A DNA stretch of 64,000 nucleotides from Alphaproteobacteria bacterium (GCA_963665325.3 OZ224045.1:672001-736000); one strand, 5' to 3'. Positions 2,534 through 43,521 are shown, numbered from the stretch's first letter. A program made the numbers and translations. Notes: generated by a model from the letters alone, not told the origin.

Positions 2534-3823
2534 ATGGGTAGTCTGCTCGCCGGCGTCCTGGCCTTTCTCGGCTCGGGAGTCACCATCGGCATCGCGCTCG
2601 GCGCGGCCAGCGCGATCTACATCCTTTTCGATCCGCTGCTGGATGCGCGGGCGCTTTCCTCGGCCTTCTTCTCGTTCCTGGGCCACTACAGCCTGATGGC
2701 GGTTCCGCTGTTCATCTTCGCCGGCTTCCTCATGGAACGCACCGGCATGGTGCGACAGCTGTTCCAATTCGCCGAGGCCCTGGTGAGCTGGGTCATCGGC
2801 GGGTTCGGGTTAGCGACGGTCACCACCTGCGTGCTGTTCAGCGCCATCTCGGGCTCGAGCGTCGCCGTCGCTTCGGCCATGAGCCTCATCACGATCCCGG
2901 AGATGCGCAAACGCAATTACCCGGACTGGCTGTCGGCCGGCATCGTGGCCTCGGGCGGGGGCATCGGCCTGCTCATACCGCCGAGCCTCTCGCTCATCAT
3001 CTACGGCATCGCGACGGAAACCTCGATCGTGCGCCTGTTCATGGCCGGCATCATTCCAGGCCTGATGCTGGCGGGCGGCATGTTCATACTCATCATACTC
3101 GCCGCCTGGCGGACCAAGACACTGAGCCGCGGCCACTTTGCCTGGGGGCCGTTGGGGCGTGCGACCGTAGGGGCTCTGCCCGGGCTTGCCATGCCGGTGC
3201 TCGTGCTGGGCGGTCTTTACGGTGGGCTGTTCACACCGACCGAGGCGGCCGCGGCCGCATGCGGCTACGCCATGCTCTACGGCCTTATCTCAGGCCGCGG
3301 CGAGTTCCTGCGCAACCTGCTGCCGACGGCCGCGCGGGCCATGAACCTCAGCGCCGTGGTGTTCTTCCTGGTTGGAAGCGTCGGGATCTTCCAATTCGTC
3401 GCCGCCAACCAGGCATGGCCCCAGCAGTTGGCTCAGCTGGTCATCGAGATGCAGCTGGAGCCGCTGCCGTTCCTGTTCGGCTACATGGCGCTCCTGTTGA
3501 TGCTCGGCACCTTCCTGGACGGCATCGCCATGATCCTGCTCACCGTGCCGGTCGTCTTTCCGGTGGCCACGGCGCTCGGCATCGACCCGATCCATCTGGG
3601 CATAGTGGTCACCATGGGCGTGGAGTTGAGCGTCATCACCCCGCCGGTGGGTTTCAACCTTTACGCCGTCAGCGGCATTGCCCAGATACCCATCCAGACC
3701 GTGCTGCGCGGGGCGATGATCTTCTTTGTATCCGACTTCATCGTGACCCTCATCATCATCCTAGTGCCCGAACTGTCCACCTGGCTACCCGCCGTACTCG
3801 GCGGGGCCTCGCCCTTCGCTTAG
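2534..3823 (+). CDS. dctM: TRAP transporter large permease
   Basis: Motifs AVPLFIFAG, SAISGSSVA, GLLIPPS, FTPTEAAA, ITPPVGFNL. Confidence 0.93.
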   Translation: MGSLLAGVLAFLGSGVTIGIALGAASAIYILFDPLLDARALSSAFFSFLGHYSLMAVPLFIFAGFLMERTGMVRQLFQFAEALVSWVIGGFGLATVTTCVLFSAISGSSVAVASAMSLITIPEMRKRNYPDWLSAGIVASGGGIGLLIPPSLSLIIYGIATETSIVRLFMAGIIPGLMLAGGMFILIILAAWRTKTLSRGHFAWGPLGRATVGALPGLAMPVLVLGGLYGGLFTPTEAAAAACGYAMLYGLISGRGEFLRNLLPTAARAMNLSAVVFFLVGSVGIFQFVAANQAWPQQLAQLVIEMQLEPLPFLFGYMALLLMLGTFLDGIAMILLTVPVVFPVATALGIDPIHLGIVVTMGVELSVITPPVGFNLYAVSGIAQIPIQTVLRGAMIFFVSDFIVTLIIILVPELSTWLPAVLGGASPFA

Positions 3824-3925
3824 CTGACCAATTCCGTTCAGGACCAACGTTGCGTTACCCTGCAGTGACCTCTGGAAGCACTTGCAAAATTCTGCCGGAT
3901 GTACGATATGTTTCAGCCGATGCGT

Positions 3926-3999
3926 TGGGCGATAGTTTAGCGGCAGAACGCTGGGTTCTGGCCCCAGTAGCCCTGGTTCGAATCCAGGTCGCCCAGCCA
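3926..3999 (+). tRNA. tRNA-Gln (anticodon CTG)
   Basis: TGGGCGA/TCGCCCA acceptor stem, CTGGG-TTCTGGC-CCCAG anticodon arm, GGTTCGAATCC T arm, encoded CCA. Confidence 0.95.
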
Positions 4000-4039
4000 C
4001 ATTTCCCAGCCTCGCTACAATCCTTCCGGTGTGCCGCCA

Positions 4040-11805: not shown

Positions 11806-11878
11806 GGTCTGCTAGCTGTCCGCGGAAGACGCGCCGGCTGTCCGCCGGCCCGGTCCGCATTGTGGAAATGGCGATTCA

Positions 11879-12358
11879 TCAGAACGGGATATCGTCGTCC
11901 AGGTCCTGACCCATGGGCGGAGCCGGAGCCGCCGACCTGCCGCCGCCCATCCCCCGGTCTTCATAGCCGCCGCCGTAATCCGCGCTCCGGCTCCCCGAAT
12001 CGCCGTCGCCTGCCCTGTCGAGCATCTGCAGTTCGCCGCGAAAACGCTGCAAGACCACTTCGGTCGAATAGCGGTCCTGCCCGGACTGGTCCTGCCATTT
12101 GCGCGTCTGCAGGCTGCCCTCGACATAGACCTTCGATCCCTTGCGGAGATATTGCTCGGCGATTTCCGCCACTCGCCCGAAAATGACCACCCGGTGCCAT
12201 TCCGTGCGTTCGCGCCGTTCGCCGGACTGCCGGTCGTTCCAGCTTTCCGAGGTTGCAACGGACAGATTTGCAATCTTGTCGCCGGACTGCATAGTCCGAA
12301 TCTCGGGGTCGCGGCCCAGATTTCCGACCAGAATCACCTTGTTGACGCTGCCTGCCAT
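11879..12358 (-). CDS. ssb: Single-stranded DNA-binding protein
   Basis: [19 protein letters not shown] ... DDDIPF tail. Confidence 0.98.
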
Positions 12359-12540
12359 ACCGCCGTGTCCTTACACCCGATTCGCCCCCGGAACATACAC
12401 CCCGCAGACCGCCAAAGCGACCGGCCGAGGACCGCCGCCCTGTGGAACGAATGGGTAACTTCGTCCCCCCGTCCCGCCGCTGGCAGCACCCCTTGCCGAA
12501 GGCGGCGGATAGGTCCCCGCGCCATACGTCCCACATGGAG

Positions 12541-26109: not shown

Positions 26110-29100
26110 CTACCAACGAAGAGACAACGTAACGGCGGCCCCGTATCCGGTATCGCCCCGTTCGTATTCGGAGCGCGTAGCGGAGATCGAGAACCCGAGA
26201 TCGCCATGCCCCGAGGGAGCCTTCCGGCGGGTGCGCCAGCCGAGCGTGTAGTCCCGCCTGGACCCGGACAGGCCGATCCCGACATAGGGCACGCCGGTCA
26301 GTCGTCCGCCCAGCGCCGGCAGCCCGTACCCCGCCTCAGCCGTTATTCGACCGCTCGAGTCGGGTGCGTTGCGCCGGGAAAGCTCCGTGACACTGGTAGC
26401 GGCGAACAGCGAGTCGGTTCCCCGGTTCGCCGCGGCGCCTGCCGACGAGGTCAACGACAGCGCGAGTCCACGCTCCGAAGACGGCGCCGGATCGAAGCGC
26501 ACGGACCCTGACATGCCCCAGTCCCGGAACCCGCGCGCTTCGTGCGAAACAAGGCGACGGGCATTCAGTTCTGCCGAAATTCCGCGCGCCGTGTCGGTCC
26601 AGCCGATGCCGCCGCCGACCTCCAGGCCGAACCCAGTCTCTGCATCCCCTCCGTCGTGGCGAACCCCGATGGAGAGCTTCGGGACAAGAGACCGCCCTTC
26701 GCCGTCCGAGAAGGGCCGTTCGCCCTCCAGCGCCAGCCGCATCCGCGTAACCTCTCCCTCGCTCGCCGCCAGGTTTCCGTTCGCAACCGAGCGAACTGCC
26801 TTCGAAGACGTGCGAACCCAGAAGGCGTCGGACTTGAGCGAAAGCGCGAACCCGTCGGTATCGGGCGCTGCCACCAGGGTCTTGACCGCGCCGAGCGCCC
26901 CGAGCGTCAGGTTGATATCCGTGCGTATGGGCGCACCGGCTTCTTCCGTGAGCGTGAAGTAGCCGGCACCGGCGCCGGCGAGGCCCCACAGAGATGCCGT
27001 ATCGTCCACACGCAAGCGGGCATAAGGGTAGATGCCCATCATCAGGCTGCGGACCTTGCCGCGCGCTTGAGGAGACGCCCGGGGACCGGTGTAGGCGAAC
27101 GTGCCTCGGCCCTGGCTGTGCGCGATCGCCGCGCCCAGGGTCATCCGCCCCCAGTCGCTGTCCGCCGCGATGAGGCCCGTTGTCACGTCGCCGTCCATGC
27201 GGACATCTTCGACCTGAGCGTCGAAGCGATCTGCGGCGCCGCGTCCCCAGAGCGAGAACACCGGGCCGTCCCCGGGCTCGGAAGAAGAAAGGTGAAACGA
27301 GGTACCTGGCGGAAGACCGGAACTTCTATTGTGCCGCGCTCTCTGTTCGTCGCTTGGCAGCTGAAGGCGCTCGGCGGCCGAGATGTAAGTCGTTTCCAGC
27401 CTGACGTCTGCCGTTGCGTCCAACATGGACACGCCGCCGACCGTCGCGTGGCGCCGCGGTTCCTCTTCCAGGCGCGTGCCTACCGCTTCGACGATCTGCT
27501 GCGCGATCGTCCGCCCGAACCTGACGAGCCATGCCCCCGGGAGCGCATCGCGGTCGTTCGAGATAACTCCTGTCGCTGCCGCTCTCCCGATACGGGCGTT
27601 CTGCGCGTCCGACAACAGAAACGCGAAGGTCTCTTCACCCTCGTCCTTGGCGTCCCTCAGCAAGGGCACGGACACGGTCTTCTCGACCTCGCCAGCGGCG
27701 AAGACGAGCGTTCCCTCGGTCCGTTCATAGTCCTCGCCCGCCTTGGCCGACCGGTCCGCCGTCGTGTAGTTGACCGAAACGGTGCGGGTGGAGCTGCGGC
27801 TCAGCAGGACATTGAAGTCGACGGCCGGGTCGCTGCGTTCTTCCGCCCGCCCGTCCTCGACGGACAGTATGGGCAGTTTCAGCACCGTCGTCGTCGCTTC
27901 GCTCAGGGCGCCGGGGCCGACCCTGTTGACCGCCCGCACCTGGAAGGTGTGTTCCTGTCCGTCGGCGAGCCCGCCCACCGTCCTGGTCAAGTCCGCCCCG
28001 GCGGAGTCCCAAAGCGTCTCGTCAGGCACGGTGTCGCCTTCAGCATAGCGATATCGATATTCAACGATCGGTGCTCCGCCGTCGCTTTCCGGCGGTTCCC
28101 AGCTTATCGTTACCTCGCCATCTCCAGGCACCGCAGACAGATCCTTGGGCGCGCCCGGAACTGTTACCGGCGTCGTGGTCGTCGAAGCCGGTTCGCTCGC
28201 ACCGACGTCGTTCACCGCACGCACCTCGAAGGCGTATTCCGCACCGTTCGTCAGGCCGCCGACCGTGATCGTCAGAACCAAATCGACAGAAGTCCAGCCG
28301 GTCGTATCCGGAACCGAAGCGCCTTCGGCGTATCGGTATTCGTAGCGCGTGATCGCAGAGCCGCCGTCATCTGCTGGCGCTTCCCATGCCAGCACGACCT
28401 CGCCGTCGCCCGGCGTCGCCGCAAGGTTCCGCGGCAGGCCCGGCGCAGCAACTGGCGTCGTGGTCGCCGAAGCCGGTTCGCTCGCGCCGACGTCGTTCAC
28501 CGCACGCACCTCAAAGACGTATTTCGTGCCATTAGTCAGGCTCCCGACCGTGACTGTCAGCGCCGTCCCGGCGGAGGTCCAGCCCGTCACATCCGGAACC
28601 GACGAACCGGCCGCGTGGCGGTACTCATACTCCGTGACCGCAGAGCCGCCATCGCCCGCCGGCGCCGTCCAGGCGAGCACGACCTCGCCGTCGCCCGGCG
28701 TCACCACAAGAGTCTGCGGCGCATCCGGCACTGTTGCCGCCAGCATAGCCGTAGCCGCAACCGCAGCGCCCAGCCCCACATCGTTTACTGCGCGAACCTC
28801 GAAAACGTATTCCGCGCCATTGTCGAGACCGTCCACCGTGACTGTCAGCGCTGTCCCGGCGGAGGTCCAGCCCGTCACGTCCGGAACCGACGAACCGGCC
28901 GCATGGCGGTACTCATACTCCGTGACCGCTGAGCCGCCATTGCTTGCCGGCGCCGTCCATGCGAGTACGACCTCGCCGTCGCCCGGCGTCGCCACAAGGC
29001 TCTGCGGCGCATCCGGTACCGTTGCCGCCAGCATGGCCGTAGCCGCAACCGCAGCGCCCGACCCCACATCGTTTATTGCGCGAACCTCGAAAGCGTATTC

Positions 29101-30613
29101 CGCGCCATTGTCGAGACCGTCCACCGTGACTGTCAGCGCCGTCCCGGCAGACGTCCAGACGGTCGTATCCGGAACCGACGAACCGGCCGCATGGCGGTAC
29201 TCATACTCCGTGACCGCAGAGCCGCCATCGCCCGCCGGCGCCGCCCATCCGAGCACGACCTCGCCGTCGCCCGGCGTCGCCACAAGGCTCTGCGGCGCAT
29301 CCGGAACTGTTGCCGCCAGCATAGCCGTAGCCGCAACCGCAGCGCCCGACCCCGCATCGTTGACTGCGCGAACCTCGAAAGCGTATTCCGCGCCATTGTC
29401 GAGACCGTCCACCGTGACTGTCAGCGCCGTCCCGGCAGACGTCCAGACGGTCGTATCCGGAACCGACGAACCGGCCGCATGACGGTATTCATACTTCGTG
29501 ACCGCTGAGCTGCCGTTGCTTGCCGGCGCCGCCCATCCGAGCACGACCTCGCCGTCGCCCGGCGTCGCCACAAGGCTCTGCGGCGCATCCGGCACTGTTG
29601 CCGCCAGCATAGCCGTAGCCGCAACCGCAGCGCCCGACCCCGCATCGTTGACTGCGCGAACCTCGAAAGCGTATTCCGCGCCATTGTCGAGACCGTCCAC
29701 CGTGACTGTCAGCGCTGTCCCGGCAGACGTCCAGACGGCCGTATCCGGAACCGACGAACCGGCCGCATGGCGGTACTCATACTCAGTGACCGCTGAGCCG
29801 CCATTGCTTGCCGGCGCCGTCCATGCGAGCACGACCTCGCCATCGCCTGGCGTCACCACAAGAGTCTGCGGCGCATCCGGCACTGTTGCCGCCAGCATGG
29901 CCGTAGCCGCAACCACAGCGCCCGGCCCCGCATCGTTGACTGCGCGAACCTCGAAAGCGTATTCCGCGCCATTGTCGAGACCGTCCACCGTGACCGTCAG
30001 CGCTGTCCCGGCGGAGGTCCAGCCCGTCACGTCCGGAACCGACGAACCGGCCGCATGACGGTACTCATACTCCGTGACCGCTGAGCCGCCATCTTCCGCC
30101 GGCGCCGTCCATGCGAGCACGACCTCGCCATCGCCCGGCGTCGCCACAAGGCTCTGCGGCGCAAACGGTACCGTTGCCGCCGGCGACCCCATCCCGGTAA
30201 CCGCAGCGCCCGGCCCGACACCGTTCACTGCGCGAACCTCGAACGTGTAGGTCGTGCTGTTGGTCAGGCTGCCCACCGTGACCGCCCGTGCCTCACCAAC
30301 CGGTGTCCACACCGTCGCTTGCGGCACGGACGCGCCCGCGGCGTGTCGGTATTCGTAACCGGAGACAGGTTCGCCGCCATTGCTCACAGGCGCATCCCAT
30401 GTCAGCACCAGCTCGGCGTTGCCAGGCGTCACAGAAAGGTTGCGAGGCGCGTCCGGAACAGTCGCCGCGGCATCCGGCACAGCCGTCCCGACAGCCGCAG
30501 CGCCCGGTCCCACATCGTTAACCGCACGTACCTCGAACGCATAGGCCGTGCCGTTAGTCAGGCTGCCCACCGTGACCGTCAGCGCCGTTCCGGCGGAGGT
30601 CCAGCCCGTCACG
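26110..30613 (-). pseudogene. C-terminal part of a giant FN3-repeat autotransporter adhesin (about 10 FN3, Calx-beta, beta-barrel), separated from its 5' part by a transposon
   Basis: Repeated W.AP...GGS..YEYR...FEVRAVN units; Calx-beta motif; barrel with RHDGGDAETGFG and terminal W. Confidence 0.88.
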
Positions 30614-30765
30614 TCCGGTGAGCGGGCGCAGGCTTTCAGCGGCGATCAGGGGCTGATCGGCTCGGATTAATCGAGGTTTTGGATTGGGTGCCCCCCGGCG
30701 ATCTTGCAAGAAGGCCGCCGGAGGGCTTGTCTCGGTGACAGTGACATCAACCTGAGACGGCCCCA

Positions 30766-31380
30766 ATGTCGCACAAGCTGTTCCGGCACTCCAATCTCTC
30801 CAACGCCCGGGTTTGGGATTTTCTGAAGCAGGTCGACGCGGCCGAGGCGGAGGCGTGCCGGGCGGCGGGTTGCCCGCGCTGCGGCGGCGCGCTTCACAGC
30901 GCGAGCTACCCGCGCAAGCCGCACGGTCTGGCGGCGAATCTTCGGAACGACGTTCGGCGCTTCAGCCTGTGCTGTTCGGTGTGCCGACGCCGCGTGAAGC
31001 CGCCGTCGGTGCGTTTCTTCGGCAGGCGCTTTTACGTCGGGGCGCTGTTCCTTGTGGTGAGTGCGCTGGCTGTGGCCGGCGGCGCGCGGTTGCAGACGAT
31101 CGCGCGGCGGTGCGGGGTTCCGGCCTCGACGCTGAAGCGCTGGCGGCGCTGGTGGCTGGAAGCCTTCCCGCTGACCCGGGAGTGGCAGGCGAGACGGGGC
31201 GAGCTGGCGGCGCCGCCCGAAGAGGCGCCGCTGCGCCGGCTGCTGCGCATCATGCGGGGCCGTGGCTTCCGCTCGCGGCTGCTGCGGAGCCTGGTCTGGC
31301 TGATGCCGTGGACCGGCTTTTGCGCGCTCGGCGCAGGTCCGGCTTCGCCCGCAGAAAGCGTTTCTATGATGCACGGATAG
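30766..31380 (+). CDS. Transposon ORF1: Zn-ribbon plus HTH protein (DUF6431-like)
   Basis: CPRC...CCSVC, then HTH-like LQTIARRCGVPASTLKRW. Confidence 0.7.
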   Translation: MSHKLFRHSNLSNARVWDFLKQVDAAEAEACRAAGCPRCGGALHSASYPRKPHGLAANLRNDVRRFSLCCSVCRRRVKPPSVRFFGRRFYVGALFLVVSALAVAGGARLQTIARRCGVPASTLKRWRRWWLEAFPLTREWQARRGELAAPPEEAPLRRLLRIMRGRGFRSRLLRSLVWLMPWTGFCALGAGPASPAESVSMMHG

Positions 31381-31428
31381 GGCACCGCATCATCGGCACC
31401 TCCACGAAGCAGCGAGGGGGATGCCGGA

Positions 31429-32904
31429 ATGAACAGCAACGACGGGAGCGAGCGTCGCGACCGGTGGGCGCGGTTGCGCTTCGCGGTGGTCGGGCCGCTT
31501 CTGGCCTCGCCGCCGCCGGCGGGGCGGCTGCACGCCGAGCTTGAGCGGCTTGCCGAACGCGAGTGGGATCACCCGTCCGGCAAGGGCCGGGTGCGCTTCG
31601 CGGTGTCCACGATCGAGCGCTGGTACTACCAGGCGCGGGCGGCGGACAACGATCCGGTGGGGGCGCTCAAGCGGCGCCCGCGCGCCGATGCCGGGCGCCC
31701 GCGCGCGATGTCGCCGACGCTGATCGAGGCGCTGCACGAGCAGTACCGGGCGCATCCGTCGTGGTCGGCGCAGCTTCATCACGAGAATCTGGCCGCGCGG
31801 GTCGAGGCCGATCCCGAGCTCGGCCCGATACCGTCCTACGCGACGCTGACCCGGGCGATGCGGGCTCGCGGGCTGGTACGCAAGCGCCGGCGCAAGTGGC
31901 ATGAGAGCGAGGCCAGGCCGGCGGTCGAAGCCCGCGAGGTATTGAGCTACGAGGTCTCGCGCTCTCACGCCCTGTGGCACGCCGACATGCACAGCGCCAA
32001 GCGTCGCGTGCTGACCGCCTCGGGCGAGTGGAAGACGCCGATCCTGCTCGGCTTCCTCGACGACCACTCGCGCCTCGGCTGCCACCTTCAGTGGTACCTC
32101 GCCGAGACCGCCGAGGTGTTCGTCCACGGCCTTTGCCAGGCCTTCATGAAGCGCGGTCTGCCGAGGTCCCTGCTGACCGACAACGGCGCGGCGATGACCG
32201 CGGGCGAGGTCGAGGAGGGGTTGCACCGGCTCGGCATCGCGGGGGTCACGACGCTCGCTTACAGCCCCCATCAGAACGGCAAGATCGAGTCGTTCTGGGG
32301 CACGGTCGAATCGCGCCTGATGGCTCAGCTCGAAGGCGTCGACGCGCTTACCTTGAAGATGCTCAACGACGCCACCATCGCCTGGCTGGAGCAGGACTAT
32401 CACCGCCGCAAGCACCGCGAGCTCGGCATGACGCCGCATCAACGCCTGGCCGGGAGCGTCGACGCGTCGAGATCCTGCCCCGGCTCGGCCGAGCTCAAGG
32501 CGGCCTTCCGCATCACCAGGAAGCGCACGCTCAGGCGCTCGGACGGCACCGTCTCGGTCGAGGGCATCCGCTACCAGGTGCCACAGCCGTGGCGCCACCT
32601 GCGCGAGGCCTGGATCCGTTACGCGCGCTGGAACCTCGCCAGCGTCGATCTGATCGACGGTCGAGGCGGCGAGCGCCTGTGCACGCTGTACCCCCTCGAC
32701 AAGCGCGGCAACGCCGATGGCGTGCGCCGTCCCGCCGGCCCCGGCGGCAACGATGGCAATGGCGGCGCGGGGACGGGGGAACTTCCGCCGCTGCTCAAGG
32801 GCATGCTCGACGCCCAGGCCGCAACCGGCCTGCCGCCGGCCTGGCTGCCCCATGACAAGACGCCCGGTCCGGGCGAGGACGAAGATCGGGGAGATGCGCC
32901 ATGA
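31429..32904 (+). CDS. DDE transposase/integrase (rve core, Mu/TnsB-like C-terminal domain)
   Basis: WHAD, LDDHSR, LTDNG, NGKIESF catalytic motifs; N-terminal HTH (STIERWY); DGTVSVEGIRYQVP. Confidence 0.92.
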   Translation: MNSNDGSERRDRWARLRFAVVGPLLASPPPAGRLHAELERLAEREWDHPSGKGRVRFAVSTIERWYYQARAADNDPVGALKRRPRADAGRPRAMSPTLIEALHEQYRAHPSWSAQLHHENLAARVEADPELGPIPSYATLTRAMRARGLVRKRRRKWHESEARPAVEAREVLSYEVSRSHALWHADMHSAKRRVLTASGEWKTPILLGFLDDHSRLGCHLQWYLAETAEVFVHGLCQAFMKRGLPRSLLTDNGAAMTAGEVEEGLHRLGIAGVTTLAYSPHQNGKIESFWGTVESRLMAQLEGVDALTLKMLNDATIAWLEQDYHRRKHRELGMTPHQRLAGSVDASRSCPGSAELKAAFRITRKRTLRRSDGTVSVEGIRYQVPQPWRHLREAWIRYARWNLASVDLIDGRGGERLCTLYPLDKRGNADGVRRPAGPGGNDGNGGAGTGELPPLLKGMLDAQAATGLPPAWLPHDKTPGPGEDEDRGDAP

Positions 32905-33734
32905 ACCGGGAACTGCTCACCTTCTACGGGCTCAAGTGGAACCCCTTCGCCACCGACCTGCCGGTCGACAGTCTCATGGCGACGCCTGCCGTCGACAGCT
33001 TCTGCCTCAGGATCGAGCGCCACCTGGTGCGCCAGGGCGGCTTCGCCTTGATCGCCGGCGAGCCCGGCGCCGGAAAGAGTGTGGCGTTGCGCCTGCTCGC
33101 CGACCGTCTCGGCCGCTGCGAGGGGCTCAGCATCGCCGCCATCACCCATCCCTCCTCCCGGCTGTCCGACTTCTACCGCGAGATCGGCGAGATGTTCGGC
33201 GTCGACCTGATGTACAACAACCGCTGGGCCAGCTTCAAAAGCCTGCGCGAGCGCTGGCTCGCCCATGTCGACGATACCCGCATGCGCCCCGTCGTGCTCG
33301 TCGACGAGGCCCAGGAGCTGCTGCCCTCGGTGTTCTCCGAGATCCGCCTGCTGGCTTCGACCGACTTCGACTCGCGCGCCATCCTCTCGGTCGTCCTCGC
33401 CGGCGACACGCGCCTGCTCGACAAGCTCCGCCAGCCCGATCTGCAGCCCATCGCCTCGCGCATCCGCCAGCGCCTGGTCATGACCAAGGCCGAGGCCGGC
33501 GACCTCGCGGCCCTGCTCGACCATCTGATCGAGCAGGCCGGCAATCCCGGCCTCATGACCGCGGGCCTCAAGGACACCCTGGTCGCCCATGCCGACGGCA
33601 ACCCGCGGGCGCTCACCGTCATGGCCGACGCCCTGCTCGCCGCCGCCGCCGAGAAGGAGCGCGAGGTCCTCGACGAGAAGCTCTTCATCGAGACCCTGGG
33701 CGAACCCGCCAAGCCGAGGAGGGCGCGGCGGTGA
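32901..33734 (+). CDS. ExeA/TnsC/MuB-like AAA+ ATPase (transposition helper)
   Basis: FYGLKWNPF, Walker A GEPGAGKS, Walker B VLVDEAQ, LAG, GNPR; ATGA coupling to the transposase. Confidence 0.88.
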   Translation: MNRELLTFYGLKWNPFATDLPVDSLMATPAVDSFCLRIERHLVRQGGFALIAGEPGAGKSVALRLLADRLGRCEGLSIAAITHPSSRLSDFYREIGEMFGVDLMYNNRWASFKSLRERWLAHVDDTRMRPVVLVDEAQELLPSVFSEIRLLASTDFDSRAILSVVLAGDTRLLDKLRQPDLQPIASRIRQRLVMTKAEAGDLAALLDHLIEQAGNPGLMTAGLKDTLVAHADGNPRALTVMADALLAAAAEKEREVLDEKLFIETLGEPAKPRRARR

Positions 33735-34729
33735 AGGGCTTCCCGACACGGGCGCCGGCGGAGCTCGAAGAGCGCCCCCAGGCGCGCCGCTGGATGGTCG
33801 AGGCGTTGTGGTCCGAGCAGGGCGTCGGCATCGTCGGCGGCGAGCCCAAGTGCGGCAAATCCTTCCTCGCACTCGACATCGCCGTCGCGGTCGCCGCCGG
33901 CGTCCCCTGCCTGCGCCACTTCCGTCCCGCCGCAAGCGGCCCCGTGCTGCTGTTCGCCGCCGAGGACGCCGGCCATATCGTGCGCGCACGCCTCCAGGGC
34001 ATCGCAAAGGCGGCAGGCACCGCGTTCGAGACCCTCGACATCGCCGTCATCGACGTGCCCACGCTGCGTCTCGACCATCGCGCCGATCGCCAGCGCCTGG
34101 TCGAGACGGTGGAGCGCGTCTCACCCCGCCTCGTCGTCCTCGACCCCCTCGTGCGCCTGCACGGCGTCGACGAAAATACCGTCGCCGAGGTCGCCCCCAT
34201 GCTGGGCTTCCTGCGCGACATACAGCGCCGCTTCGAAACCGCCGTCCTCCTCGTCCATCACGCACGAAAGAGCGGCGGCTCCCGGCCCGGGCAGGCGCTG
34301 CGCGGCAGCAGCGAACTTCACGCCTGGGGCGATTCGAATCTGTACCTGCGCCGGCGAGACCGCCAGATCCTCATGACCGTCGAGCATCGCGACGCCCCTG
34401 GCCTCGAAGACCTCGAGATCGAACTCGCCGACGACGACGAGCGCCCCGCCCTGCGGTTGCGCGAGACGCCGGAAGACCAGGCGCCGGAGCCGGATACCCC
34501 CGAACGGCGCATCCTGCAGGCCCTCGCCGACGCCGACGCGCCGCTCTCCCAGCGCCGGATCCGCGAGCGCGCGGCAACCCGGCCCGCAACCGTCGCCGAG
34601 GCGCTGCACAGGCTCGTCCGCGAAGGACGCGTCGAGCGCGCATCCGAAGGCGGATACCGCCTCGCCGCCCTCAACGGCAACGACCGCAGGGACACGTTAC
34701 CGAAAACCGTTACCGCCTCGAACCCCTAG
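33731..34729 (+). CDS. RepA-like (AAA_25 / SF4) helicase-ATPase with C-terminal winged HTH, 332 aa
   Basis: GGEPKCGKS, AAED, VVLDPL, DEN, LVHHARK, RGSS; wHTH PLSQRRIRE...VAEALHRLVREGRV; GTGA coupling. Confidence 0.82.
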   Translation: MKGFPTRAPAELEERPQARRWMVEALWSEQGVGIVGGEPKCGKSFLALDIAVAVAAGVPCLRHFRPAASGPVLLFAAEDAGHIVRARLQGIAKAAGTAFETLDIAVIDVPTLRLDHRADRQRLVETVERVSPRLVVLDPLVRLHGVDENTVAEVAPMLGFLRDIQRRFETAVLLVHHARKSGGSRPGQALRGSSELHAWGDSNLYLRRRDRQILMTVEHRDAPGLEDLEIELADDDERPALRLRETPEDQAPEPDTPERRILQALADADAPLSQRRIRERAATRPATVAEALHRLVREGRVERASEGGYRLAALNGNDRRDTLPKTVTASNP

Positions 34730-34756
34730 GGAGAGAGGGTAACGGTAACGGGTAAC
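34695..34756. repeat. Iteron-like array: 2x GTTACC facing 3x GGTAAC around the palindrome CCCTAGGG
   Basis: CGTTACCG at 34695 and 34708; CCCTAGGG 34724-34731; GGTAAC at 34738, 34744, 34751. Confidence 0.8.
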
Positions 34757-35002
34757 ACCGCTCCCATTGTCACACTGCGTAAAGCGGCCGGCCCGTGGCC
34801 GGAAGCTTGCTTACGGCCATGGATGCACTCCGTCGGAGGGACGGCGGCGGGTCACCCGAAGGGCCGGAGCGCAGCGCAGGAGCCGCGAAGCGGCTTGACG
34901 CGCCGACGGCCGTCCGACACCCCCGCCGTCACGCCCGGCCCGACGCCTGAAAACCATCGAACAACGTGACCATCCCGCCATCAGATACCGAGAGCACACT
35001 CA

Positions 35003-38000
35003 TCCGGAACCGACGAACCGGCCGCGTGGCGGTATTCATACTCCGTGACCGCTGAGCCGCCATCGTCTGCCGGCGCCGTCCATGCGAGCACGACCTCGCC
35101 GTCGCCCGGCGTCGCCACAAGGGTCTGCGGCGCAAACGGTACCGTTGCCGCCGGCGACCCCATCCCGGTAACTGCAGCGCCCGGCCCGACATTGTTCACT
35201 GCGCGAACCTCGAAGGCGTATTCCGTGCCGTTGGTCAGGCTGTCCACCGTTGCTGTCAGGCTCGTCCCGGCCGATTGCCAGGCCGTCTCATCGGGAACCG
35301 CTTCGCCCTCGGCATGTCGGTATTCGTAGCCCGTGACCGCAGAGCCGCCATTGCTGGACGGCGCCTGCCAGGTCAGCACTACTTCGCCGTTGCCCGGCGT
35401 TGCCACGAGGCTCTGCGGCAGGCCCGGCACCGTCGCGGGCGTCGCCGACATTGCGGCGGCCTCGCTCTCGCCTTCAGCGTTCACCGCACGCACCTCGAAG
35501 GCGTAATCCGTGCCGTTGGTCAGGCTGTCCACCGTCGCCGTCAGGCCCGTCCCGGCCGATTGCCAGGCCGTCTCATCGGGAACCGACGCGCCTTCCGCGT
35601 GGCGGTATTCGTATTCCGTGACCGCAGAGCCGCCATTGCTGGCCGGTGCCTGCCAGGTCAGCACTACTTCGCCGTCGCCCGGCGTCGTCGAGAAATTCTG
35701 CGGCGGGCCCGGCACCGTCGCCGGCGTCGCCGTCGCCGCGGCGGGCTTGCCCTCGCCTTCAGCGTTCACCGCGCGCACCTCGAAGGCGTATTCCGTGCCG
35801 TTGGTCAGGCTGTCCACTGTCGCCGTCAGGCTCGTCCCGGCCGATTGCCAGGCCGTCTCATCGGGAACCGACGCGCCCTCGGCATGGCGGTATTCATACT
35901 CCGTGACCGCAGAGCCGCCATTGCTTGCCGGCGCCTGCCAGGTCAGCACTACTTCGCCGTTGCCCGGCGTCGCCACAAGGCTCTGCGGCACACTCGGCAC
36001 CGTTGCAGGCGTCGCCGACTTTGCGGCGGCCCCGCCCTCGCCTTCAGCGTTCACCGCGCGCACCTCGAAGGCGTATTCCGTGCCGTTGGTCAGGCTGTCC
36101 ACCGTCGCTGTCAGGCTCGTCCCGGCCGATTGCCAGGCCGTCTCATCGGGAACCGCTTCGCCCTCGGCATGGCGGTATTCGTAGCCCGTGACCGCAGAAC
36201 CGCCATTGCTGGCCGGAGCCTGCCAGGTCAGCACGACCTCGCCGTCGCCCGGAGTGGCCGCCAGATTCTGGGGCACAGACGGAACCTTCGGCTGGACTGC
36301 CGGCGTTGCCGCCGCTGTAGCGGCCTCGCCCTCGCCTTCAGCGTTCATCGCGCGCACCTCGAAGGCGTATTCCGTGCCGTTGGTCAGGCTGTCCACCGTT
36401 GCCGTCAGGCTCGTCCCGGCCGATTGCCAGGCCGTTTCATCGGGAACCGACGCGCCCTCGGCATGGCGGTATTCGTAGCCCGTGACCGCAGAGCCGCCAT
36501 TGCTGGCCGGAGCCTGCCAGGTCAGCACGACCTCGCCGTCGCCCGGAGTGGCCGCCAGATTCTGGGGCACAGACGGAACCGTCGGCTGGACTGCCGGCGT
36601 TGCCGCCGCTGTAGCGGCCTCGCCCTCGCCTTCAGCGTTCATCGCGCGCACCTCGAAGGCGTATTCCGTGCCGTTGGTCAGGCTGTCCACCGTTGCCGTC
36701 AGGCTCGTCCCGGCCGATTGCCAGGCCGTTTCATCGGGAACCGACGCGCCCTCGGCATGGCGGTATTCGTAGCCCGTGACCGCAGAGCCGCCATTGCTGG
36801 CCGGAGCCTGCCAGGTCAGCACGACCTCGCCGTCGCCCGGCATTGCCGCGAGGCTCTGCGGCACAGACGGAACCGTCGGCTGGACTGCCGGCGTTGCCGC
36901 CGCTGTAGCGGCCTCGCCCTCGCCTTCATTGTTCACCGCGCGCACCTCGAAGGCGTATTCCGTGCCGTTGGTCAGGCTGTCCACCGTCGCTGTCAGGCTC
37001 GTCCCGGCCGATTGCCAGGCCGTCTCATCGGGAACCGACGCGCCCTCAGCGTGGCGGTATTCGTAGCCCGTGACCGCAGAGCCGCCATTGCTGGCCGGCG
37101 CCTGCCAGGTCAGCACTACTTCGCCGTCGCCCGGCGTTGCCGCGAGGCTCTGCGGCAGGCCCGGCACCGTCACCGGCGTCGCCGTAGCCGTAGCGGCCTC
37201 GCCCTCGCCTTCAGCGTTCACCGCGCGCACCTCGAAGGCGTATTCCGTGCCGTTGGTCAGGCTGTCCACCGTCGCCGTCAGGCTCGTTCCGGCCGATTGC
37301 CAGGCCGTCTCATCGGGAACCGACGCGCCCTCAGCGTGGCGGTATTCGTATTCCGTCACCGCAGAGCCGCCATTGCTGGCCGGCGCCTGCCAGGTCAGCA
37401 CGACCTCGCCGTCGCCCGGCGTTGCCGCGAGGCTCTGCGGCACAGACGGAACCGTCGGCTGGACTGCCGGCGTTGTCGTCGCGGTAGCAGGCTCGCTGCC
37501 GCCAACGACATTCACCGCCCGCACCTCGAAGGTGTATTCCGTGCCGTTGGTCAGGCCGCGGCGCGTGACGTGCGTTCTCTTGCCGGTGGATAGCCAGGCC
37601 GCTTCAGCGGGCACCGAGGCGCCCTCGGCCAACCGGTATTCATAGTCGATGACCGCAGAACCGCCGTTACTCGACGGCACCTTCCAAGTAAGGGTCACCT
37701 GGCCGTCGGCCGGCGTCGTCGAGAGGTTCTGCGGCGGACCCGGTACGGTCGCCGGCGTCGCCGTCGCCGCGGCGGGATCGCTCTCGCCTTCAGCGTTCAC
37801 CGCGCGCACCTCGAAGGCGTATTCCGTGCCGTTGGTCAGGCTGTTCACCGTCGCTGTCAGGCTTGTCCCGGCGGACTGCCAGGCCGTCTCATCAGGAACC
37901 GACGCGCCTTCTGCGTGGCGGTATTCGTATTCCGTGACCGCAGAACCGCCATTGCTGGCCGGCGCCTGCCAGGTCAGCACTACTTCGCCGTCGCCCGGAG

Positions 38001-41000
38001 TGGCCGCCAGATTCTGGGGCACAGACGGAACCGTCGGCTGGGCTGCCGGCGTCACCGTAGCCGTGGCGGCCCCGCCCTCGCCTTCAGCGTTCACCGCGCG
38101 CACCTCGAAGGCATATTCCGTGCCGTTGGTCAGGCTGTCCACCGTCGCTGTCAGGCCCGTCCCGGCGGACTGCCAGGCCGTTTCATCGGGAACCGCTTCG
38201 CCCTCGGCATGGCGGTATTCATACTCCGTGACCGCAGAGCCGCCATTGCTGGCCGGAGCCTGCCAGGTCAGCACGACCTCGCCGTCGCTCGGCGTCGTCG
38301 AGAAATTCTGAGGCGGGCCCGGTACGGTCGCCGGCGTCGCCGCCGTCGTCGCCGCCTCGCCCGCGGTGGCATTGCTGACCGCTCGCACCTCGAACGCATA
38401 TGCCGTGCCGTTGGTCAGATCGGACACGGTGAGCGTCGTCACGAGCCCCACCGGGGTCCATGTCGTATCGCCCGGCACACTCGCGCCTTCGGCATGGCGC
38501 ACGTCGTAACGCGCGATATCGGCGCCGCCGTCATCCGCCGGCGCCTGCCACCGCAGCTCAACCCCGCCGTCGGCCGGCGTCGCCATCAGGTTTCGCGGCG
38601 CGGACGGGGGAAGACCCGGCGTCGCCTGGATTTGCGCTGCCGGCCCGTCCCCCTGGGCGTTCACCGCCCGCACCTCGAAGCTGTAGAGCGTCCCGTTGGT
38701 CAGGAACCGGAAAGCGCCGGTAGTACGGAGTCCCGTCGAAATCCAGCGCGTGCTTGCGGGAACCGAGGCGCCTTCGGCGTTGCGCATCTGGTAGTGCCGG
38801 ACATTGGACCCGCCATCGTCTGCCGGCGCCGACCAGCGCAGGACGATCCCGCCGTCTTCCGCCGCCGCGACGACTTCCTGAGGAACGGAGGGCAAGGTCA
38901 GCGGTCCCGCTGTCGCGCTGGCGGGCGCGCCCCCGCCGGCATCGCTCACCGCGCGCACCTCGAAGGCATAGGTCGTGCCCTCGGTCAGGCTGCCTATGGT
39001 CGCCGTCAGATCGGTTCCGGCGGAGATCCAGTCCCTTTCCGCAGGCACCGAGGTGCCCTCGGCGTGGCGGTACTCATACTCCGAGATCGCCGAGGTGCCG
39101 GGATCCGCCGGCGCTTCCCAGGCCAGCGTCACTTCACCGTCGCCCGGCGTCGCGGACAAGTTCTGCGGCGCCGACGGCGCGCTGTCATTGTCCCCGATCG
39201 TGACCGTCATGAGGCAGCCGTCGGCACCGCAAACGGTCGTCCCGTCCGCCTCGCGAATCTGCGCCCATGGGGGGAACCCGGGCGCCCTAATCAGCCTGAC
39301 CGACAGGTTTTCGTCGTCCTCGTCGAGGGCGTCGTCGACGATGGAGAGCGCAACCGTCTTGCGGGCCTGCCAGATACCGCCGACCTCGGAAAAGTCCTCC
39401 GGTTCGATGCGAACTGTGATCGACAGGGTTGCGTAGTCTGCCCCAAACTTTGCGCCCCCGGTCACCGTCTTCGTCGACACCGACACCTCGAAGACTTCGC
39501 TCGGACGGCCGCCGCCCGACTCGACCTCTGCGACGATCGCCACGCTGGTCTCGCTCGCGCCTTCCGCAAATCTATAGGCCGCCTTTTCCGGGCGGGCGGT
39601 GATCGTGGGATGGCGCACCGGCGTCGCCGTCGCCGTCGCCGCAGCGCCCGCGCCGACATCGTTCACCGCCCTCACCTCGAAGGCATAAGCCGTACCGTCG
39701 GTCAGGCTGCTGACTCTTCTGGGCAGAACGTTCGCGATCGATTGCCAGGCCGTTTCGGACGGCACCGTGGCGCCCTCTGCGTAGCGATATTCGTAGCGGT
39801 CAATCGCGGTACTGCCGGAATCCGACGGCGCTTCCCACTCCAGCGTCACCGCGCCGTGGCTCGCCGTCGCCGTCAGGTTTCGCGGCGCGGACGGGGGAAA
39901 GCCGGGCGTCGCCTGGATTTGCGCTGCCGGCCCGTCCCCCTGGGCGTTCACCGCCCGCACCTCGAAGCTGTAGAGCGTCCCGTTGGTCAGGAACCGGAAA
40001 GCGCCGGTAGTGCTGGGTCCCGTCGAAATCCAGCGCGTGCTTGCGGGAACCGAGGCGCCTTCGGCGTTGCGCATCTGGTAGTGCCGGACATTGGACCCGC
40101 CATCGTCCGCCGGCGCCGACCATCGCAGGACGACCCCGCCGTCTTCCGCCGCCGCGACGACATCTTGAGGAACGGAGGGCAAGGTCAGCGGTCCCGCTGT
40201 CGCGCTGGCGGGCGCGCCCCCGCCGGCGTCGCTCACCGCGCGCACCTCGAAGGCATAGGTCGTGCCCTCGGTCAGGCTGCCTATGGTCGCCGTCAGATCG
40301 GTTCCGGCGGAGATCCAGTCCCTTTTCTCGGGTACCGAGGTGCCCTCGGCGTGGCGGTACTCATACTCCGAGATCGCGGAAGTCCCGCTGTCCGCCGGCG
40401 CTTCCCAGGCGAGCGTCACCGCACCGTCTTCCGGCGTCGCCGTAAAGTTCTGCGGCTCCGACGGCGCGCTGTCATTGTCCCCGATCGTAACCGTCATGAG
40501 GCAGACGCCAGAACCGCAAACGGTCGTCCCGTCCGCCTCGCGAATCTGCGCCCATGGGGGGAACCCGGGCGCCATCTCCAGCGTGACCGTCAGGTTCTCG
40601 TCGTCCTCGTCGAGGGCGTCGTCGACGATGGAGAGCGCAACCGTCTTGCGGGCCTGCCAGACACCGCCGACCTTGGAAAAATCCTTCGGTTCGATGCCGA
40701 CCGGAGCCGCCACAGCACCGAAGTCTGCGGGGGACTTTGCGCCTCCGGTCACCTCCTTCGTCGACACCGACACATAGAAGGTCTCACTCGGGCGGCCGCC
40801 GTCCGACTCGACCTCTGCGACGATCGCCACGCTGGTCTCGCTCGCGCCTTCGACGAAATTATAGGCCGCCTTTTCCGGGCGGGCGGTGACCGTGGGTTGG
40901 TGCACCGGCGTCGCCGTCGCCGTCGCCGCAGCGCCCGCGCCGACAGCATTCGCCGCCCGCACCTCGAAGGCATGGGCCGTGCCGTTGGTCAGGCCGCTGA

Positions 41001-43521
41001 CTCTTCTGAACAGAACGTTCGCGATCGATTGCCAGGCCGTTTCGGACGGCACCGTGGCGCCCTCTGCGTAGCGGTATTCGTAGCGGTCAATCGCGGTACT
41101 GCCCGGAGCCGCCGGCGCTTCCCAGTCCAGCCTCACCTCCCCGTGGCTCGCCGCCGCCGTCAGGTTCCGCGGTGCGGACGGGGGAAAGCCGGGCGTCGCC
41201 TGGATTTGCGCTGCCGGCCCCTCTCCATCGGCGTTCACCGCCCGCACCTCGAAGCTGTAGAGCGTCCCGTTGGTCAGGAACCGGAAAGCGCCGGTAGTAC
41301 TGGGTCCCGTCGAAATCCAGCGCGTGCTTGCGGGAACCGAGGCGCCTTCGGCATTGCGCATCTCGTAGTACCGGACATTGGACCCGCCGCTGTTCCTCGG
41401 TGCCGACCATCGCAGGACGACCCCGCCGTCTTCCGTCGTGGCAGAGACATCTTGAGGAGCGGACAGCGGACCGTCGTTGTCCTCGATCGTGACCGTCATG
41501 ACGCAACCGCCCGAAGCGCAGGCGGTCGTCCCGTCCGCCTCGCGGAAGCGCACCCACGGGGGTACCCCGGGCGCCGCCAGGACGTTCATCTGGAATTCCT
41601 CGTCGGCCTCGACGGCGCTGTCGTCGACGATGGAGAGCGCGACCGACTTCCGGGCCTGCCAGATGCCGTCAACCTCGGAATAATCCTCCGGCTCGACGTC
41701 GAACATGATCGACAGGTTTTCGACGTCTGCGGAGAGCGTCGCGCCACCGGTAACAGCAGAAGTGATCACCGCCATACGGAAGGCCGCGCTCGGACGGTCG
41801 CCGCCTTGCTCTCCCTGCGCGACAATCGCGACGCTGGCCCCGCTCGCGCCTTCCGCAAATCTGTAGGCCGCCTTTTCCGGGCGGGCGGTGACCGTGGGAT
41901 GGCTCACAGGCGTCGCCGTCGCCGTTGCCGCATCGCCCACGCCGACACCGTTCACCGCCCTCACCTCGAAGGCGTAGGCCGTACCGCTGGTCAGGTCGTC
42001 GACTATTCTGGACGGATCCCTGCCGTTCGATCGCCAGGCCGTCTCGGAAGGCACCGCGGCGCCCTCGGCGTAGCGGTATTCGTAGTCCGTAATCGCGGTA
42101 CTGCCCGGAGCCGCCGGCGCTTCCCACTCCAGCGTCACCTGCCCGTGACTAGCCTTCGCCGTCAGGTTCCGCGGCGCGGACGGGGGAAAGCCGGGCGTCG
42201 CCTGGATCTGCGCTACCGTCCCCTCTCCCTGCGCGTTCACCGCGCGCACCTCGAAGCTGTAGAGCACACCGTTGGTCAACTGCCGAAAAGCTCCCGTAGT
42301 GGCGATCCCCGTCGAAATCCAGGGCCTGTCCTCGGGAACCGAGGCGCCTTCGGCGCGGCGCATCTGGTAGTGCAGGATTCTGGAGCCGCCATCGTGCGCC
42401 GGCGCCGACCATCGCAGGACGACCGCGCCGTCTTCCGGTGTCGCCGTCAGGCTTTGCGGCGCAGACGGTCGACCCGGCGTCGCCTGGATCTGCGCTACCG
42501 GCCCCTCTCCCTGCGCGTTCACCGCCCGCACCTCGAAGCTGTAGAGCACACCGTTGGTCAGCGAACGGAAAACGACCGCAGTGGTGGACCCCGCCCAACT
42601 CCAGGGCCTGTCCTCGGGAACCGAGGCGCCTTCGGCGTAGCGTATCTGGTAGTGCAGGACTCTGGAGCTGCCTTCATCCGCCGGCGCCGACCATTGCAGG
42701 ACGACCGCGCTGTCTTCCGGTGTCGCCGTCAGGCTTTGCGGCGCAGACGGTTGACCCGGCGTTGCCTGGATCCGCGCTGCCGGCCCCTCTCCCCGGGCGC
42801 TCACCGCCCGCACCTCGAAGCTGTAGCGCGTCCCGTTGGTCAATTGCGGGAAAGCCCTCGACGTGAGGGTCCCGTTCGATATCCAGGGCGTACCCTCGGG
42901 AACCGAGGTGCCTTCGGCGCTGCGCACCTCGTAGCGCAGCAGGATAGTGGAGCCGCCATCGTCCGCCGGCGCCGACCAGCGCAGGACGACCCCGCTGTCG
43001 TCCGCCGTTGCCGTCAGGCTTTGCGGTGCGGACGGGGGAAGACCGGGCGTCGCCTGGAGTTGCGCCGCCGGCCCTGCTCCCTGGGCGTTCACCGCCCGCA
43101 CCTCGAAGCTGTAGCGCGTCCCGTTGGTCAGCTGCGGGAAAGCGAACGACGTGAAGGTCCCGGTCCGAATCCAGGGCGTACCCTCGGGAACCGAGGCGCC
43201 TTCGGCGCTGCGCACCTCGTAGCGCAGGATAGTGGAGCCGCCATTGTCCGCCGGCGCCGACCATCGCAGGACGACCCCGCCGTTGTCCACCGTCGCGGAG
43301 ACGTTCTGCAGCGCACCCGGGGGGCCCGGCTCACTCTGGCGCGCAACGGGCGGGTCGGACGGATTGCTCGCCTGCGCAGCGGCGGCCGGCAGAAAAACCG
43401 ATGCGACGCCGAATATGGCAGCCCAGCGTCGGACAAACCGGACCGACGCGCAAAGAAACCCGGTCGGCCCGGAACGAAAATTGTTTCGAATGGCGCTCGA
43501 CCAGCCGGAAGTCGTACCCAT
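35003..43521 (-). pseudogene. N-terminal part of the giant FN3-repeat adhesin (signal peptide, about 24 FN3, 3 Calx-beta-like domains), truncated by the transposon
   Basis: Extended signal peptide ending AAAAQA; 24 FEVRA motifs; three IVDD...E.DE...VTI.DND domains; frame runs into the transposon and stops at 34981. Confidence 0.88.

Follow-up and report, generated by a model that had tools for sequence, protein, structure and literature searches.

A Tn6049-family transposon with a RepA-like helicase gene and a repeat array that may serve its own replication

Introduction

Tn6049 is a 3.5-kilobase (kb) transposon that is reported to occur in 12 copies in Cupriavidus metallidurans CH34, all of them with the 'gspA' ATPase gene (PMC2864759). 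A second report, on plasmid pHS87a of Pseudomonas aeruginosa, gives its imperfect repeats as 12 base pairs (bp) long, TGTGCaTaAGCA, and its direct repeats as 4 bp long (PMC4739549). Tn6049 is found on Paraburkholderia plasmids as well. Our literature search found no mechanistic study of Tn6049; the other papers examined mention it as an insertion or a marker only. Here we describe a relative of Tn6049 in a 64,000-nucleotide (nt) stretch of DNA, hereafter the window, from an alphaproteobacterium (GCA_963665325.3, OZ224045.1:672001-736000). Beyond the three genes shared with Tn6049, this element carries a gene for an AAA_25-type ATPase resembling the RepA helicase of plasmid RSF1010, and a palindromic repeat array lies across the stop codon of that gene.

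Transposons that combine a DDE transposase with an AAA+ partner include IS21 (IstA and IstB) and the Mu, Tn7, Tn5053 and Tn552 types (MuA or TnsB together with MuB, TnsC or TniB); we know of none among the latter that encodes a helicase. To our knowledge, replisome recruitment by replicative or copy-out transposons is understood in detail only for phage Mu, where it depends on host restart proteins. There are mobile elements with their own replication proteins, such as the self-synthesizing transposons (casposons) and the integrative and conjugative elements (ICEs) of the TnGBS type, which have DDE transposases. These are large, carry a DNA polymerase or a whole plasmid or ICE replicon, and employ other integrases or transposases. 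In small replicons such as the rep-ori of Staphylococcus aureus pathogenicity islands (SaPI) and phage P4 alpha, an initiator-helicase gene is followed by its repeats. For IS21, copy-out/paste-in transposition is proposed in one article (PMC11208146).

Relation to Tn6049 and other transposon families

The window feature is an insertion sequence (IS)-like, recently amplified and active multi-copy transposon of the Tn6049 family. A BLAST search of the source genome (5.58 Mb, five contigs) with the 4,384-bp element returned 24 full-length copies at 99.98–100% identity, present on all five contigs (14, 2, 4, 3 and 1 on contigs 1 to 5). Twenty-one are identical at 4,384 bp, two carry a 1-nt deletion and one is split by an unrelated 2,070-bp insertion. 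The element ends are confirmed independently, because not only the genome copies but also contigs from public sequencing runs (three records) stop exactly at 30619 and 35002. An earlier, sequence-only reading of the window had placed the boundaries there, with TG...CA ends and imperfect inverted repeats, and had suggested a search for further copies; on all these points it is borne out.

The same reading had assigned the element a 5-bp target duplication. This is correct for the window copy, flanked by TCCGG, but the length is not fixed: of the 24 copies, 10 have a duplication of 5 bp, 8 one of 4 bp and 2 one of 6 bp, while 4 have none. A related genome with 28 scorable copies gave much the same picture (15 with 5 bp, 11 with 4 bp, one with 3 bp and one without), so that a variable duplication of 4–6 bp is a family trait. 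Insertion sites of the 24 copies showed no evident specificity beyond GC-rich 4–6-mers.

The first three genes have the same order and strand as in Tn6049 and their products are 40–52% identical to the Tn6049 proteins (Table 1; the TnpA alignment spans 468 amino acids (aa)). The ends, TGTGCaTaAGCA in Tn6049 and TGAGCGGGCGCA in the window, both start with TG and agree at 7 of 12 positions. Both elements are multi-copy and make short direct repeats (4 bp in Tn6049, and 4 bp in 8/24 copies of the window element). In a plasmid collection, the best TnpA matches (~50% identity) were on Cupriavidus, Pseudomonas and Paraburkholderia plasmids; the Tn6049 copy on pMOL30 is annotated, in order, as a 181-aa 'transposase', an 'IS481 family transposase', a 277-aa 'AAA family ATPase' and a 71-aa hypothetical protein. 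The two elements differ in size (3.5 kb versus 4,384 bp) and in what comes after the ATPase gene. There, Tn6049 has an unrelated 71-aa open reading frame (ORF) and a plain hairpin, whereas the AAA_25 gene, repeat array and structured block, all present in the window element, are missing. The sequence-only reading has to be corrected here, since the three-gene backbone is already named. The Tn6049 family is nevertheless uncharacterised, and the window element is a previously undescribed variant within it.

Two other family assignments were considered and rejected. RefSeq labels the Tn6049 TnpA as an 'IS481 family transposase', but the window TnpA scores 123.9 bits against the IS481 NCBIfam model (cut-off 224) and the element has four genes rather than the one of that IS family. 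Against the IS21 model (NF033546) TnpA reaches 45.1 bits (cut-off 160), and the accompanying ATPase is of the AAA_22 type, not IstB. IS21 nevertheless shares with the window element a DDE transposase with an AAA+ helper, short variable duplications and TG...CA-type ends. The Mu/Tn7-type transposons likewise share the DDE transposase with an AAA+ regulator and the TG...CA ends; in addition, 5 bp is the commonest duplication in the window element, and its proteins have Mu-type PHROG matches and weak fold matches to TnsB and MuA. Unlike those transposons, however, the element lacks both TnsA and a resolvase, a TniQ fold is not detectable in its orf1 product, and the duplication varies between 4 and 6 bp.

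The AAA_25 gene is a conserved module of the family

The product of the fourth gene is, by prediction, a hexameric-helicase-type ATPase that resembles RSF1010 RepA and is fused to a winged helix, the latter formed by the C-terminal 75 residues. Among solved structures the protein matches one only, RepA of RSF1010, a hexameric helicase (1G8Y; E 2.4e-8 with the single sequence, 7.4e-12 with a family profile). The aligned RecA-fold ring-helicase motifs are Walker A, the AED motif, Walker B, HHxxK and RGSS, in RepA order. PHROG matches are to primase/helicase families, and one relative (42% identical) has a DnaB N-terminal domain (DnaB_N). In the window protein the motifs read GGEPKCGKS (a canonical Walker A), VVLDP (Walker B), HHARK and RGSS. 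Among 95 homologues, Walker B is kept in 95, RGSS in 94 and HHxxK in 87, and Walker A is canonical in 44.

We collected relatives in two ways, by transposase and by AAA_25. The transposase-led scan took one genome per species and confirmed 483 stretches, and the 80 best of them (63–92% identity, 16 assemblies) were kept; the assemblies are labelled as coming from several phyla, some of these labels being on short contigs of metagenome-assembled genomes where binning errors are possible. Among these best 80 loci, the order orf1-tnpA-AAA_22 is retained in all 80 and an intact AAA_25 gene directly follows AAA_22 in 68; in the remaining 12, a contig end, a further insertion or a rearrangement interrupts the locus. 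The AAA_25-led scan of metagenomes gave 80 loci (52–81% identity), four of them too short upstream to judge. In all 76 informative loci a transposition ATPase lies directly upstream of AAA_25, of the AAA_22 type in 71 and of the IstB type in five.

AAA_25 is under purifying selection as strong as that on its neighbours: pairwise ratios of nonsynonymous to synonymous substitution rates (dN/dS) are 0.22–0.37 for AAA_25, 0.24–0.34 for TnpA and 0.15–0.48 for AAA_22. The AAA_25 tree recovers the same major groups as the TnpA tree. In the latter, rooted on a distant type, Tn6049 and a Paraburkholderia relative form a single clade nested among AAA_25-bearing lineages, a position that favours loss of AAA_25 in Tn6049. 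It is thus well supported that the AAA_25 gene is a conserved family module and not sporadic cargo, because it is kept in all close relatives, is under purifying selection, is broadly co-phyletic with TnpA and retains its 3′ repeat array. The sequence-only reading had called the helicase a core module rather than cargo. Retention in 68 of 80 loci, selection and the array agree with this; the absence of the gene from Tn6049 does not, and so the helicase is not indispensable for Tn6049-type transposition.

Close relatives of AAA_25 abound in public data, with 489 clusters (50% identity) at E ≤1e-30, and the top 120 clusters at 90% identity are all at least 72% identical. On 72,556 plasmids we found no AAA_25 relative above 30.5% identity. 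In a class-wide sample of 400 other genomes the transposase turned up in 3, each time on a short contig that gave no context, and the transposase query had no match in one genome of the same genus (G312) or one of the same family (G172).

Some AAA_25 genes are themselves interrupted. In locus L050 an IS66-like element (9773-12448; three ORFs, 8-bp duplication) lies within the gene. L018 and L076-L080, which come from two other genomes, show a break almost at that point (residue 157–160), and the site may be a recurrent target of another IS.

The module on other transposon types

The AAA_25 module is not confined to Tn6049-type backbones. The genome of one relative contains a second type of element (type B; L061 228-4607, L048). 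The transposase of this element shares only 29% identity with that of the window and the ATPase only 28%, its ends differ (TGTTGT...) and the transposase matches Mu-transpos_C above cut-off. Its right-hand 1.27 kb, including AAA_25, is nonetheless 80% identical at the nucleotide level to the co-resident window-type element. The second type also occurs in metagenomes (L101, L104), and there too the AAA_25 genes fall within the window clade. In the AAA_25 tree, the row for L061 was the type A copy of that locus, not type B; it was ignored and later removed.

Five metagenome loci carry an AAA_25 gene (53–56% identical) behind a genuine IS21 pair, with the array in the same position; in L116, for example, IstA scores 247 bits (cut-off 160) and IstB 217.6 (cut-off 200). 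We found no paper that links such a helicase gene to Tn6049-, IS21-, Mu- or Tn7-type elements. The statement of the sequence-only reading that Mu, Tn7 and IS21 encode no SF4 helicase as a core gene agrees with the literature we found, yet for IS21 it needs correction, given that IS21-type elements in metagenomes can carry AAA_25.

Three IS21-type carriers also contain, between IstB and AAA_25, a small ORF akin to the 71-aa orf4 of Tn6049 (46–51% identity; L116 3269-3427, L139 2944-3027, L114 219-350). Tn6049 may keep a piece of a former orf4-AAA_25 module.

Repeat array, structured block and primase-like gene

Repeats within a single element are uninformative, and both the array and the ends become clear only through comparison with relatives. 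The window array comprises a left arm, GTTACC-GAAAAC-CGTTACC, a loop with the TAG stop codon and a right arm, GGGTAAC-GGTAAC-GGGTAAC, that is, 3+3 hexamer repeats. On every transposon type AAA_25 is followed by a related array, built of GGGAAC, GGAAAC, GGAAGC or GGAACC units. A strict three-unit pattern is found in 38/87 loci, compared with 10 matches in 1.09 Mb from other parts of these loci. Close to the stop codon, the top-scoring inverted repeat of 18 nt has at least 15 matches in 36/85 loci, a score reached in 0/85 control windows inside the gene, and the two arms are of concordant type in 40 of the 44 loci where both could be typed. These per-locus inverted-repeat scores and arm-type tallies were used instead of RNAalifold, which found no consensus on unanchored hairpin windows as left arms were out of register. 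In Tn6049 and its Paraburkholderia relative the array position is occupied by plain hairpins. From this arrangement we infer that the winged helix binds the repeat array, some 250–300 bp from the right end.

Downstream of the array lies a structured block of about 130 nt, found in the window element, part of the window clade and the second transposon type. Its predicted consensus fold has 48 pairs, 96.3% of them paired in 10 sequences. Seven pairs are changed on both sides, compared with 3.2 ± 1.0 in shuffles (0/500 as high) and at most two in slid controls, and the G·U pairs lie on the sense strand. A search of positions 30500-35100 against Rfam returned no family at E up to 1.

Five relatives of 5.16–5.19 kb (L021, L026, L087, L089 and L102) have a fifth gene after the array, encoding a 287–306-aa protein with DUF3991 and Toprim domains, both above cut-off and with the Toprim E and DxD residues invariant. 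In the four of them compared (L021, L026, L087, L089) the structured block had no match.

A possible role in the replication of the element

Could a transposon of this size supply its own replication helicase? We tentatively propose, as something slightly short of an even chance, that the window element is a Tn6049-family transposon with a built-in helicase and origin-like module that serves the element's own replication during transposition. By homology, the DDE transposase, the MuB/TnsC-like AAA_22 ATPase and the orf1 product would insert the element with staggered cuts of 4–6 bp. The anatomy of the module suggests that the winged helix of the AAA_25 protein would bind the array and load the helicase on the element's DNA, while the primase of some relatives, or else the structured block, might serve priming. 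The transposon would in this way provide part of the replication machinery that copies it during transposition. The replicated substrate could be the strand-transfer (Shapiro) intermediate or a copy-out intermediate, and sole reliance on the host restart primosome would be replaced.

The distribution of the copies bears on the mode of transposition. Two of the four duplication-less copies in the source genome form a flank-swapped pair (contig 2 25283-29666 and contig 4 930514-934897; CGACC/ACGG), and a second such pair is found on two contigs of a relative's genome (L065 and L066; GGGG/GAAGG). These pairs point to replicon fusion or exchange via the element, the route being either a cointegrate or homologous recombination of one copy with another. 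Taken together, the lack of a TnsA-like or resolvase gene, the burst of identical copies and the flank swaps are compatible with a replicative or copy-out mode.

A broader proposal, which we regard as possible yet more doubtful than the above, is that such elements represent an undescribed and widespread DDE class, 'transposon-replicons', with Tn6049-like, IS481-like and IS21-like backbones. They would share their own initiator-helicase, an origin-like palindrome and, in part, a Toprim primase, and would establish a fork on their own DNA, whether on the strand-transfer intermediate or on a copied-out circle, bypassing the host restart primosome. The helper ATPase may hand over to the element's helicase or load it, since IstB, the helper in some carriers, is a paralogue of the helicase loader DnaC. 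Initiator-helicase replicons such as those of SaPI and P4 are similar in that the helicase-like protein, here AAA_25 with its predicted C-terminal DNA-binding domain, is encoded immediately upstream of repeats and, in relatives, has a primase-like partner. They differ in that the window module is embedded in a 4.4-kb DDE transposon, lacks an AT-rich unwinding element and was observed in no autonomous form. Compared with casposons and TnGBS-type elements, the window element is of insertion-sequence size and carries only the helicase, to which relatives may add a primase.

Several observations weigh against a replication role. Tn6049 reaches 12 copies in CH34 without the helicase, and hence the module is dispensable for a Tn6049-type backbone. 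The tree that favours its loss there includes metagenome rows chosen by AAA_25, so that lineages without AAA_25 are under-sampled in it. In 50/95 homologues Walker A reads GGEPKCCKS, the glycine before the lysine being replaced by cysteine, which casts doubt on a universal ATP-driven helicase role; all of these homologues belong to one large metagenome clade (loci L106-L180) and none to the window clade. No AT-rich stretch occurs at 34690-35002, the palindrome loop is not AT-rich either and an obvious unwinding element is absent. The source genome has no DUF3991/Toprim protein. Residue 285 of the winged helix does vary with the variable base of the repeat unit (Pro with GGTAAC in 5/5 elements, Asn with GGGAAC in 12/18, neither in 25 GGAAAC elements), but this link comprises only two and four independent contrasts, none of them opposite, and is not significant by a sign test. 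Finally, homologous recombination between copies explains the flank swaps equally well.

As a side observation, GGEPKCCKS is conserved over its whole clade, which is unusual for a P-loop ATPase.

We also considered a plasmid-like stage, an unlikely alternative, in which an excised or copied-out circle replicates autonomously for a time, with AAA_25 as initiator-helicase and the array as origin. More substrate would then be available for transposition, or the element would spread horizontally more easily. It would account for the gene-then-repeats layout shared with small replicons, for a plasmid replication helicase as the nearest solved structure and for the primase-like gene of relatives. 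The same module beside three unrelated transposase types also fits action on the element's DNA rather than within one transpososome, and copy-out/paste-in is proposed for IS21, which has module-bearing relatives. However, the circle junction of 35002 to 30619 that the sequence-only reading had proposed to look for was seen neither in the source genome nor in the collected loci, where a loose search for abutted ends gave chance matches only, nor among the joints listed for four public runs (contigs). Terminal overlaps occur in 0/91 contig-sized loci, and the element contains neither an AT-rich unwinding region nor any gene for partition or copy control. The junction negatives are weak because contigs drop rare forms: all 24 public runs were available as contigs.

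Equally improbable, in our assessment, is that the AAA_25 protein is a DNA-binding regulator or target selector instead of a replication protein, for example a copy-number or immunity factor acting near the right end or a TnsE-like fork sensor. Its winged helix and cognate site near one end do resemble end-binding regulators, the non-canonical Walker A of half the homologues and the success of Tn6049 without the gene would be readily understood, and the niche seems open, as a 2023 survey reports no dedicated target selector for IS21 and Mu-like systems (PMC10293859). Yet a pure regulator would leave the near-universal retention of Walker B, HHxxK and RGSS and their alignment to RepA unexplained, and the Toprim and DnaB_N associations have no obvious place in it; nor does the absence of evident insertion-site specificity suggest a selector. 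Fork-oriented targeting could be read from the orientation of the contig-1 copies, 12/14 of which follow the local gene majority; but this bias is weak, judged as it was against a crude gene-strand proxy only, replichores could not be read from the GC skew and dnaA falls within the '+' region.

Least probable is a selfish-passenger role, in which the module, for instance the remnant of a mini-replicon or a cassette for addiction or defence, adds nothing to the movement of the DDE+ATPase transposon: lateral moves (AAA_25 genes of type B, despite its 29% identical TnpA, and of IS21-type elements nest in Tn6049-type clades) and the sufficiency of Tn6049 without it speak for this, but 0/76 informative loci lie outside a transposon, position and strand are constant, with the start overlapping the ATPase-gene stop in the window, AAA_25 is co-phyletic with TnpA over the family and selected as strongly as the transposition genes, and no toxin-like or defence-like partner gene was found in the element (PADLOC not searched).

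If the proposed replication role is true, a natural experiment on replisome recruitment would be at hand in a family of insertion-sequence size whose members combine a helicase with a matching DNA site and, in some cases, a primase. With four genes in 4.4 kb, the element is a compact system for asking whether a transposon can prime the replication of its own DNA and whether a helicase can cooperate with ATPases of the MuB or IstB type. Elements of the family are in addition abundant drivers of genome rearrangement (24 copies here, at least 28 in one relative, 489 clusters of close helicase relatives); their insertions split large genes and their flanks have been exchanged between replicons. 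At present the parts of these elements are annotated only as 'IS481 family transposase' and 'AAA family ATPase'.

Gene content, ends and copies

The coordinates of all features are given in Table 1. Four co-directional genes were recovered as in the sequence-only reading, the last three overlapping by 4 nt each (ATGA at the tnpA/AAA_22 junction and GTGA at the AAA_22/AAA_25 junction, AAA_25 starting with GTG). Among these four genes, Pfam and NCBIfam searches revealed no TnsA-like nuclease, TniQ/TnsD selector or resolvase. A promoter and terminator scan found no promoter-like site, and terminator-like sites were no commoner than in shuffled sequences.

Table 1. Coordinates of the transposon, its parts and the interrupted host gene in the window
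Feature	Position	Strand	Remarks
Host gene: giant repeat-rich surface protein (fibronectin-III-like by eye)	26110-43521	-	Split into ORFs 34981-43521 and 26110-30612
Left target-site duplication copy, TCCGG	30614-30618	.	Read from junction sequence
Whole transposon	30619-35002	+	4,384 bp, TG...CA ends; 1 of 24 genome copies, each matching bases 1-4384
Left terminal inverted repeat, TGAGCGGGCGC	30619-30629	+	Family consensus TGAGCG.GCGC
orf1, 204 aa	30766-31380	+	Zn-ribbon-like CxxC...CCxxC and HTH_23; 40% identical to 181-aa Tn6049 'transposase' ORF
tnpA, 491-aa rve-type DDE transposase	31429-32904	+	N-terminal helix-turn-helix domains, C-terminal beta-rich domain; 51% identical to Tn6049 TnpA
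AAA_22 ATPase (ExeA/GspA-like, MuB-like), 277 aa	32901-33734	+	72.6 bits; 52% identical to Tn6049 'GspA'
AAA_25 RepA-like ATPase with C-terminal winged helix (predicted), 332 aa	33731-34729	+	AAA_25 124.7 bits; HTH_IclR 22.9 bits, cut-off 22
Palindromic repeat array across AAA_25 stop codon	34696-34756	+	Proposed binding/loading site of winged helix
Structured block, ~130 nt (hairpin and branched domain)	34791-34918	+	84-92% nucleotide identity with relatives and second transposon type
Right terminal inverted repeat, reverse complement TGAGTGTGCTC	34992-35002	-	Agrees with left repeat at 8/11 positions
Right target-site duplication copy, TCCGG	35003-35007	.	Read from junction sequence

On the plus strand, the left junction between host and element reads ...GTCACGTCCGG/TGAGCGGGCGCAGG... 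(in shorter form ...CACGTCCGG/TGAGCGGGCGC) and the right one ...GAGAGCACACTCA/TCCGGAACC... (...GAGCACACTCA/TCCGGAACC). The two terminal inverted repeats, TGAGCGGGCGC and TGAGTGTGCTC, agree at 8/11 positions.

In the family alignment of the orf1 product, C36, C39 and C73 are invariant and C69/C70 and H44 nearly so; the protein is presumably an end- or target-binding accessory protein. Its predicted structure, of mediocre confidence (predicted local distance difference test (pLDDT) 65.7), has no significant fold match in PDB (best E 1.2) and no detectable TniQ fold. TnpA scores below every family cut-off in Pfam and NCBIfam. Its PHROG match is phrog_310 (Mu-type transposase; E 2.4e-40), and Mu-transpos_C of Pfam is detected in one of 17 family members (E 0.0016). 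The TnpA model is poor (pLDDT 54.2, with the catalytic core below 50); it shows the beta-rich domain at 361–420, and its top fold matches, TnsB (E 1.6e-3) and MuA (E 0.02), are, coming from such a model, hints only. The AAA_22 protein matches phrog_296, 'DNA transposition protein' (E 1.4e-23), shows ExeA-like similarity with TIGR03015 below cut-off and has no match to IstB_IS21 (NF038214, PF01695).

In one public run (X1), element contigs have a depth of ~580–670 compared with 20 for a flank contig, though depth does not equal copy number. A joint in the same run that skips 4389 nt may stem from a paralogous repeat unit in the host gene that is not interrupted, rather than from an empty site. 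Contigs from an RNA library (X17), ~90–95% identical to the window, include part of the structured block as well as the junction of AAA_22 with AAA_25; they may derive from carried-over DNA.

Further observations concern the surroundings of the copies. The 2,070-bp insertion that splits one of them (contig 1 2290873-2292942, 4-bp duplication) lies at element position 4108-4111, in the region of the array and block. Seven copies are clustered within 120 kb of contig 1 (1982775-2101890), 5–30 kb apart and none inserted in another, in a region of unusually strong GC skew (~+0.10). The cluster may reflect local hopping or an insertion-tolerant island. Degraded fragments, 79–86% identical to the element, occur at contig 1 446362-446548 and 452255-452348, contig 5 368816-368938 and contig 2 183624-183746. 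Remnants of an older related element, they match part of the AAA_22 gene and the tail of AAA_25 as well as the left end and the block region. Several contigs also contain many fragments of IstB-like ATPases (22.8–45 bits), and so IS21-family elements are multi-copy in the source genome as well.

The interrupted host gene

The window copy is inserted into a gene for a host protein of ~4,340 aa, now in two pieces and composed of dozens of ~95-aa tandem units. Residues flanking the insertion (…SVPD on one side, VTGWTSAG… on the other) continue a repeat unit that recurs throughout both host-gene ORFs. The end of the 1,500-aa piece resembles an autotransporter-type C-terminus. The repeats of the gene also yield long spurious ORFs on the opposite strand.

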